A stretch of 64,000 bases of DNA, from positions 17,112,001-17,176,000 of the forward strand of contig NC_083294.1 in NCBI RefSeq assembly GCF_963506605.1. Reading direction: 5' to 3'. The translations under genes and the position numbers were made by a program. Under the pieces are notes generated by a model. The model did no database searches, was not told the origin of the DNA, and was given only the letters and a program-made list of their open reading frames with translations. This DNA comes from Zootoca vivipara. Lineage: Eukaryota. Shown here piece by piece: positions 50,697 to 53,189 of the stretch (position 1 is its first letter; the number at the start of each line of letters is the position of its first letter).

Positions 50697-50897
50697 AGGT
50701 GACCCAGGTGGCGCTGTGGAGGGACCCATGTGGCACTGTGTCCCAGGGACCCAGGTGGTGCTGTGGTTAAACCACTGAGCCTAGGGCTTGCTGATCAGAA
50801 GGTCGGCAGTTTGAATCCCTGTGACGGGGTGAGCTCCCGTTGCTTGGTCCCAGCTCCTTCACAAAGTTTTATTCAGGATAACTTCCAGTGAACATCA

Positions 50898-50942
50898 ACA
50901 TCAGGACAAGGCCCTGTTTCGATGATTCTTCATCAGCGAGGT
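50898..50942 (-). ncRNA. Type I hammerhead ribozyme motif, inverted copy
   Basis: Exact reverse complement of 51014-51058. Confidence 0.7.
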
Positions 50943-51013
50943 TTCTCAGGTCTAAGTGTACCAAGTATGTTTGCTTTGCTAACTCCCAAAGCAGTGTGGT
51001 GTGGTGCTGAGAA

Positions 51014-51058
51014 ACCTCGCTGATGAAGAATCATCGAAACAGGGCCTTGTCCTGATGT
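51014..51058 (+). ncRNA. Type I hammerhead ribozyme motif with canonical core
   Basis: CTGATGA(51020-51026)-a-GAatcaTC-GAAAC-agggcctt-GTC^(51051); near-palindromic stem III; stem I imperfect. Confidence 0.7.
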
Positions 51059-53189
51059 TGATGTTCACTGGAAGTTATCCTGAATAAAACTTTGTGAAGA
51101 ATTTTTGAAATTATCCTTTTTGGCCCGAGTTCTTGTAATTTTTCGTTTACTTCTGAACTTACCAAGAACTCCAATTTCTACTGTGGTCCCAGCTCCTGCC
51201 AACCTAGCAGTTCGAAAGCACATCAAAATGCAAGTAGATAAAAAGGAACCGCTACAGCGGAAAGGTAAACAGCGTTTCCATGTGCTGCTCTGGTTTGCCA
51301 GAAGCAGCTTTGTCATGCTGGCCACATGACCTGGAAGCTATACGCTGGCTCCCTCGGCCAATAATGCGAGATGAGCGCGCAACCCCAGAGTCGGTCACGA
51401 CTGGACCTAATGATCAGGGGTCCCTTTACCTTTACCACACGCGTCCACACAATTTTGTGTGATTGTTCCCATTTTAAAAACAAGTTTGTCCTGTAGATGA
51501 TGATAATTGCATAAGAACCTGCCCCTGACTTCATCAGAAAAGGAACTTGGCTGGCTGCCTTTCTCAACACGCCCTGCTCGTTTTTTGATTTTGTCAACCC
51601 TTAACCCAGCTGGGGAAATTTTGTGTTGAAACCAGAAAGTGTTTCTGCTTGCGGTTTAAGTACAGGGAAGCAGAAGGCACCCTGTGGTGGGCAGAGCCTC
51701 TTTAAGATCAGCTTATTACCGGGTGAAATCTGGGCTCTGGCTCCTCAGTGGGTATCAAAGTTCAGATATGAAATGTGAAGCAAGAAGAGGCAACAGTGCT
51801 CCTGAGTCAGGTGCAGGCTGCATTTCCCTCCATGCCAAGAAACCACTGAGAGTCTCATGCACACCAAGAACCAGGGAGAAGGATCACAGTTGTGTGTGTT
51901 TTCTGGAAGCATTCTGGGTCATGCCATTTCTGCTGGCCACAGAGCCCCCAGCCTTACATCAGGTCAGATCCCCAATCCATCTTGATTAATATTGTCTGCA
52001 CTGTCAGTGGGGATTGAACATGCGACCTTCTTTATGAAAAGCAGGTGCTATACCACGGGTCTATCTGCTTAAAATTAATAGATTCCAGTCTTCAAGCTTC
52101 TGAATAAAGGGATTGAACCTGAGGCCTTCTGCATTTAAAGCAGCTGCTCTGATACCCCAGAGGTACTGCATTTTCTGAATTGGTGTTTATACTGGCAGGC
52201 TATGAACAAGGGCTAATTTTGAAAAGCAACATAGACTCAATGCAGAACATGGAGAATTCCCACACAGACCTACCATTTTTTTCCTTTGCAGATTGCATTC
52301 TACAGAAAGGAAGAAAACAAAAACTTCATGCTCCTCCCCCCCTTTCTCTTTATAAGCTGCCTTAGATAATATTTCCACCAGGGGCAATAAATCAAAACAA
52401 ACACCACCAGGTTCTCTCAGTGGTGGCCGAATTTTGGCTAAAATGCAACCCAGCGAGCTTCCCACCCAAAACTGTGATTATGTAATCTTAGCCTTCAACA
52501 AAAGCGTTCAAAGTCCATCACTATGGAGAGGCCCTTGGGACAGATCCTGCCGGTGCCTTTTGCCAGAGTCACGATGGAGCAGTCTAACCTGGGAATAGCA
52601 GTGCACTTTGGAACACAGCAACACACCCATCAGTACACAAGCAGGGCTGTCACATATAATAAATGATATGTATAGATGCAAATTTAGGCCAATACTCAGG
52701 AACCCTTGGGTGCCAGATCTTACTCTGAGAAAAGGGCTGCCAACATGATATTATGGGCCCAGCAAGGAGGGGGCTCTTTCAGCCTGAGGGCCACATTCTC
52801 TTCTGGGCAACCTTCCAGGGGCCACATGCCAATGGTAGGTGAAGCCAGAGGCAAAAGCGGCTAGAGCAATTCATGGAATTTTACCTTTTGACACTAAGCT
52901 AGATTCTACACTTGTATGAAGAGCCTGCTGGATCAGGCCAGTGGCCCATCTAGTCCAACATCCTCTTCTCACACTGGCCAACCAATACCTGATGCCTCTT
53001 CTGGGTGGCACACGAGCAGGACCAGAGCACAAGAGCCCTCTCCCCTCCTGTGGGTCCTAGCAACTGGTGTTACAGAAGCATTGCTTTCTCCAACTGGGGA
53101 GGCAGAGCAGAGCCACTGCGGCTTTTGGCCATTGTCAACTACCTCATCCATGAATTTGTCTAATCTTTTTTTTTAAGGCTACCTAGGTT

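Follow-up and report, generated by a model that had tools for sequence, protein, structure and literature searches.

A 325-bp fold-back insertion in a 64,000-nucleotide stretch of Zootoca vivipara DNA (the window) carries a hammerhead motif on each strand and raises the question of what kind of element left it there. A sequence-only reading had proposed a young, possibly uncatalogued family with a ribozyme working from both strands. According to the analysis described below, the insertion is very probably the front end of a Penelope-type element (Penelope-like element; PLE), present twice in head-to-head orientation and lacking its intron.

Architecture of the insertion and identity of its family

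Positions were numbered relative to the splice junction, with +1 at the C of CUGAUGA (51020), and the features are listed in Table 1. The outer boundaries given previously were confirmed. The perfect 14-bp direct repeat is a real target-site duplication (TSD), since an uninterrupted copy of the host repeat contains the site once, and the inverted repeat is 100% identical over 93 nt (50857-50949 and 51007-51099), two of which belong to the left TSD copy. We take the host repeat to be a Sauria SINE. Most of the 57-nt 'loop' belongs to the element instead of being a spacer: the inverted arm runs on through 50950-50985, as family sequence to -49, and only the 21 nt at 50986-51006 are filler. No template longer than 8 nt for this filler turned up in the element or up to 1.5 kb away. 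Zero divergence had also been claimed; the window copy differs from the majority of nine close copies at 2/164 positions, and is therefore young, yet above zero divergence.

Table 1. Features of the insertion and its surroundings (window coordinates).
Feature	Position	Strand	Basis or remark
Host short interspersed repeat split by the insertion	50745..51436	+	Self-BLAST to uninterrupted copy 6480-6843
Left TSD copy, 14 bp	50845..50858	+	Last 2 nt also match the inverted-arm end (microhomology)
Inverted (secondary) arm: spliced pLTR leader, -49 to about +79/+80	50859..50985	-	BLAST against ORF-bearing copy L061 splits the arm at the intron
Inverted-arm hammerhead core, C3 50936, C17 50905; splice junction between 50937 and 50936	50905..50936	-	
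Head-to-head junction filler, 21 nt	50986..51006	.	Template search
Primary arm: spliced pLTR leader, -13 to +164 (usual 3' end of the family)	51007..51183	+	24/29 primary arms end at +163 to +166
Exon 1 end; unspliced copies continue with a GT-AG intron, 313 (L061) to ~345 nt	51007..51019	+	
Minimal type I hammerhead core: CUGAUGA, extra A, stem II 1-2 bp, GAAA, C17 51051	51020..51051	+	
Palindromic stem III of the primary-arm hammerhead	51039-51050	+	
AATAAA, young subfamily only; putative signal at most	51083..51088	+	
Likely PLE 'tail', ~30 nt, between preferred 3' ends at about +135 and +164	51154..51183	+	Arm ends; PMC11167929
Right TSD copy, 14 bp	51184..51197	+	

The PLE fragment inserted into a head-to-head pair of SINE copies (50342-50696 on the minus strand and 50745-51436 on the plus strand), which is enclosed in turn by a 43-bp direct repeat (93%; 50298-50340 and 51453-51495). 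Elsewhere in the window, the H/ACA snoRNA SNORA17 was matched at 31173-31306 (+) with 94 bits.

The genome was searched with 50950-51183, giving 623 first-look candidates, 40 of which were scored; the best were 98-99% alike over the arm. Longer copies of the same family with an RT/GIY-YIG ORF upstream of the pseudo-LTR (pLTR), for which a BLASTN check had been proposed, were found. When these copies were extended upstream, a 3' UTR was followed by an ORF with RT (YIDD), a CxxCxxC linker and a GIY-YIG-like end. The ORF was matched by Pfam RVT_1 (E 4.8e-8), its linker reads CGRCNVC and the C-terminal motif YAWICPCQKMYIG (GIY-YIG) was read directly from it. Pfam GIY-YIG scored below threshold for this ORF and above it for a second family of 39% protein identity, and no Pfam match was obtained with a 386-aa C-terminal fragment. 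In copy L061 the stop codon of the ORF lies 200 nt upstream of the splice donor, with the pLTR hammerhead motif downstream of the ORF. The family protein has 1632 relatives, the best named ones being from lizards (64% and 44%). A Zn-finger-like CX2-5CxxC in the RT-EN linker is a trait of the Neptune clade common to Nematis (PMC8557442), and CGRCNVC is a linker of this form. Judged by its protein sequence, the family is an endonuclease-bearing (EN+) PLE of the Neptune/Nematis linker type.

The suggested derivation from a PLE with an inverted pLTR was borne out: the family ORF carries RT and a GIY-YIG-like end, and the inverted arm is present. The other suggestion, an ORF-less or retrozyme-like family, was not, as copies with RT/GIY-YIG exist and the fetched loci contain no head-to-tail arrays of short units. 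Recent activity is plausible from the 98-99% likeness of the closest copies, although the three longest ORF copies found were broken or 5'-truncated. A partial tandem with an upstream pLTR and an intact ORF was found for the second family and not for this one, in which a tail running into the ORF start was likewise not found. TSDs of 13-17 bp flank 23 of the 29 primary arms examined. Some insertions occur many times over within duplicated segments, namely an unspliced fold-back (C18:5.25-6.62 Mb and C19:39.54 Mb; L177-L182) and a spliced copy (C2:4.80-5.09 Mb; L204-L209), and were collapsed in the counts.

Intron removal and the 5' wall of spliced copies

Copies that bear the ORF have a GT-AG intron whose last letter directly precedes CUGAUGA and whose length runs from 313 nt (L061) to ~345 nt (older subfamilies). 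Both window arms are the spliced form, with the intron exactly removed. Using exact patterns, 59 spliced junctions and 81 intron acceptors were counted in the genome (reversed controls, 0), and a looser pattern gave 167 spliced places. Each of four exon-1 variants was found both spliced and unspliced, so the spliced copies arose repeatedly from masters.

The 5' extent of each arm was measured as how far it matches the element upstream of the donor. All 60 spliced arms of a first set reach 74 nt or less, and all 65 from older subfamilies (drawn from the first 100 of the 167 looser-pattern places, leaving out the young ones) reach 52 nt or less; five arms were dropped as segmental duplicates, leaving 120. 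Beyond 74 nt, none of these 120 arms was found, against 19 of the 24 intron-keeping arms passing the donor (up to 2987 nt), with a Fisher p of 1.8e-19 that is somewhat inflated by the separate counting of the two arms of one insertion. The intron-keeping arms numbered 70, of which 46 were short of the donor or scored short from divergence to the reference; 22 of the 24 that pass it were also in a length-blind list. The mode of the spliced 5' ends is -41 (24 of 75 arms scored). A TATA-like box stands 31 nt before this mode in four of five reference copies and 29 nt before it in the one with a deletion, and an extra G, the mark of a cap, precedes 11 of the 24 ends at -41 (p 0.07, not significant). 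We infer that the wall is the transcription start, and the spliced copies were therefore probably made from the mRNA leader as run-off cDNAs. The literature searched gave no description of spliced PLE copies bounded at the start site, though an earlier mention is possible, and the available text of PMC12910113 has nothing on spliced copies.

For the second PLE family, which has two pLTR introns, 30 of 126 matches were examined. In all nine fully spliced copies the 5' end lies 41-53 nt before the first donor, a TATATAA standing 31 nt ahead of the mode, and all four independent unspliced loci passing that point extend further (p 0.0014; two copies truncated earlier, one partly spliced and the other a spliced fold-back, are outside the count). 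At L086, L087 and L089 (C1:89.14 Mb, C7:61.43 Mb and C4:88.71 Mb) this family forms 3781-bp tandem units that are 99.9% identical; it has a long open frame, and a long loop caps the 6-bp stem III of its hammerhead. From its sequences, it is likely to be the currently active family and would be the better system for experiments. Fragments of a third PLE family were located in the window at 26051-26402 and 33882-34494, the latter also a head-to-head fold-back; they match L088 (929-aa frame) at 92-98%, and in the pLTR of this family a CGAAAG comes 19 nt after CUGAAGA.

RNA reads were drawn from three runs (~6% of each). Almost all were only 90-95% alike to the young copy, i.e. from nearly only older copies, and no pile-up of read starts or ends was seen among them. 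The few reads crossing the junction were discarded as evidence of splicing, as spliced genomic copies could yield them. In run X12, 139 loose read ends were noted in the L041:1488-1557 region; their consensus (agreement 0.63, possibly another individual) crosses exon 1 of an old subfamily and exits the element at the donor into other sequence, a junction absent from the assembly. These reads suggest use of an old copy's donor in a host transcript, a possible exonisation of a PLE fragment.

Hammerhead motif and stem I

A motif scan of the window returned only two stem-loop-compatible hammerhead matches, the one core per strand reported previously (C3 at 51020 on the plus strand and 50936 on the minus strand). 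CUGAUGA, GAAA and a palindromic stem III, which had been recognized as parts of the minimal type I motif, are present together with an extra base, and C17 at 51051 is the expected cut position. Stem III self-pairs as a dimer over 12 bp (-18.9 kcal/mol); the isolated 12-mer does not. Calling the motif a canonical ribozyme on each strand went too far. Stem I had been described as bulged; it is indeed weak, the cause being that removal of the intron left the window arms only one contiguous pair. An Rfam hammerhead check gave no match at E<=1. The AATAAA does lie at 51083, but it is not a conserved signal, occurring in 1/62 and 4/18 arms of older subfamilies, and copies end ~95 nt past it without poly(A).

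The last letters of the intron are the 5' strand of stem I. The oldest subfamily, of T type, had a median of 7 contiguous stem I pairs in unspliced and 1 in spliced arms (12 and 46 arms, respectively). The corresponding medians were 3 and 1 in the young subfamily (26 and 51 arms), 3 and 1 in another old subfamily (3 and 13 arms) and 3 and 3 in a middle subfamily (21 and 7 arms), where four of the seven spliced arms keep 3-4 pairs. The duplex energy of the 9-nt stem I in the young subfamily is equal in the spliced and unspliced forms (-2.3 versus -2.2), which tells against a clean ribozyme switch. Pairing predicts that stem I is supplied by the intron's 3' end and that splicing would switch the ribozyme off in the translated mRNA and in the window copy. 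In every one of the 11 forms tried, the hammerhead-competent fold was 10-22 kcal/mol less stable than the minimum, so that the intron-keeping form, too, may be inactive. The overlap with stem I is not general, since the last intron of the second family ends 35 nt ahead of its hammerhead core.

Among 199 arms, GAAA is conserved in 192, GUC in 188 and stem III in 178, counts that were partly selected by the search patterns. The G10.1-C11.1 pair is G-C in 179 of 191 arms, and the core CUGANGA, GAAA and UH, with an extra base after A9, is present. Minimal type I hammerheads are described with a helix I of ~4-5 bp and a long helix II (PMC4209133); here helix I has one contiguous pair in the spliced form and helix II has 1-2 bp. 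Of eight candidates for copies starting exactly at the cut site, none proved a true case: seven were core-bearing variants and one started a few nucleotides earlier; a search for the denominator gave 119 matches. In the young subfamily, a change in loop II, not seen in older subfamilies, lets UGAUGA pair with UCAUCG in a predicted hairpin (51021-51036 in the window) that would trap the catalytic core. Together with the weaker stem I, this modelled hairpin may mean that the ribozyme has decayed in recent masters.

Origin of the insertion and comparison with known elements

An inverted arm accompanies 21 of the 29 primary arms. Its 3' end lies at +124 to +139 in 11 of the 21 and at +79/80 in four. 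The two arms agree in splicing state in all 27 classified fold-backs (20 spliced and 7 unspliced; duplicated loci collapsed), so one RNA or one cDNA gave both; an origin from two independent RNAs per fold-back was ruled out (0/27 mixed, truncated core-less arms being outside the classification).

With good confidence, we regard the insertion as a dead by-product: two head-to-head spliced 5' leaders of an EN-bearing PLE, reverse transcription having been primed inside the leader of one spliced mRNA. The intron would be spliced out of an mRNA made from the pLTR promoter, and reverse transcription would start internally, at +164, at a second site near +135 or at a minor site at +79/80. From +164 it would copy ~200 nt to the 5' end of the RNA and leave a short spliced copy. 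A single RNA, or a single first cDNA, would be the source of both arms, and the product would be fixed in a 14-bp staggered cut. If the RNA is a read-through product, a start at this site in its downstream pLTR would instead lead to copying of the intron, 3' UTR and ORF; long copies would come from such RNA, in which the downstream pLTR intron stays. That intron may be kept because the exon ending at its donor, at ~3 kb, would exceed the length suited to exon definition. The read-through RNA is putative, no tandem or intact master having been found for this family. For the anole PLE, two internal sites of reverse-transcription start, close to the beginning of the ORF, have been shown to define the tail; in vitro, initiation is internal and both strands of the target undergo cutting and extension (PMC11167929).

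We lean, with some reserve, towards two RNA sources, in which cap-proximal spliced pLTRs would give the short dead leaders and downstream unspliced pLTRs every long copy, the splice also disarming the ribozyme. The reason for PLE intron retention has been called unknown (PMC8557442), and the choice between a sense and an antisense PLE template was left open (PMC3846280). The spliced copies require a sense, spliced RNA somewhere in their history. Should the two-source model be true, no antisense template is needed to explain intron retention, and in this family the intron would act as a switch by which the translated mRNA loses its ribozyme, an arrangement that Drosophila Penelope has as well. 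The sharp 5' wall in two families offers a testable account of intron retention and a way to map PLE promoters from genome sequence alone.

The wall could also be read as a stop of reverse transcription at an RNA structure instead of the RNA end. Folding predicts short hairpins in exon 1 and the cap-G signal is not significant; intron-keeping copies nevertheless traverse the same sequence, 19/24 passing -74 and one stopping at -40, and TATA-like boxes stand 31 nt before the wall in two families, so that such a stop is improbable. Equally improbable is a non-autonomous retrozyme- or SINE-like family in which one spliced pLTR master spreads and the wall is the end of that master. Spliced copies are numerous (59 exact, 167 looser), short and ORF-less, and retrozymes have been reported to be pLTR-derived (bioRxiv 10.64898/2026.07.22.740005), but these copies track four subfamilies that also exist unspliced, the second family has the same wall, the fetched loci lack head-to-tail short-unit arrays and, by eye, the copies have no shared 5' or 3' flanks. 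The anole PLE moreover needs RNA downstream of the reverse-transcription start (PMC11167929), which solo copies lack; the present family would have the same need.

Least probable is a working double ribozyme, with RNA from both strands cleaving itself as monomer or dimer. Core nucleotides are kept across subfamilies with diverged flanks, stem III can pair as a 12-bp dimer and a protein-assisted PLE hammerhead exists (PMC11167929). Against this, core conservation reflects the masters and not the window copy, stem I has one contiguous pair, the competent fold costs 19-22 kcal/mol and both cores are buried when the full insertion folds, as a hairpin of -204 kcal/mol. For the origin of the fold-back only, a first cDNA that snapped back on itself, its centre being trimmed later, was weighed against an RNA primed twice, and is judged rather unlikely. 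The matching splicing state of all 27 fold-backs is expected from it, the primary arm extends further 5' in 13/21 and self-priming has been proposed (PMC3846280). The inverted arm reaches further 5' in 7/21, the window insertion included, which plain snap-back cannot give and which speaks for one RNA having been primed twice; the clustering of inverted 3' ends at +124 to +139 and +79/80 is as expected of priming sites. Centre trimming could still account for the asymmetry of the arms.

The dead by-product that we favour is an ordinary one for PLEs and probably functionless. Its type, an inverted pLTR with a tail and a TSD, is already known: complex insertions of EN+ PLEs have an inverted 5'-truncated pLTR, a 30-40-bp tail and a TSD (Pen2a_Av, PMC3846280; scheme in PMC8557442). 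The window insertion resembles these in its head-to-head arms, one of them tailed, within a TSD, and differs in that both arms are spliced leader only, without ORF sequence. With animal non-LTR retrozymes it shares a short, ORF-less, pLTR-derived structure and a type I hammerhead; those, however, are head-to-tail tandem repeats with a hammerhead per unit (bioRxiv 10.64898/2026.07.22.740005), whereas this is a single head-to-head insertion. As in Poseidon PAc of Anolis carolinensis, the hammerhead lies near the pLTR-ORF junction, internal 3' ends are ~30 nt apart and no reads end at the cut site (PMC11167929). The ORF of PAc starts inside stem II, while the ATG in the core here is closed by a stop after 10 codons, and the main text of PMC11167929 mentions no intron for PAc.

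[quoted passage not shown] 2C), and spliced and unspliced RNA give different hammerhead motifs (PMC4209133). In both elements a pLTR intron follows soon after the start, 46 nt after it in Drosophila (PMC2377424) and an inferred ~41 nt here, and the small helix III is palindromic (PMC4209133). The present family differs in being a vertebrate one with a CxxCxxC linker, in its intron (313-345 versus 75 nt) and stem II (1-2 versus 6 bp) and in having many spliced copies in the genome that stop at the putative start; the available texts on Penelope mention none of this kind. The overlap of intron and stem I known from the fly element thus appears in a distant vertebrate family, which suggests a splice-controlled ribozyme.
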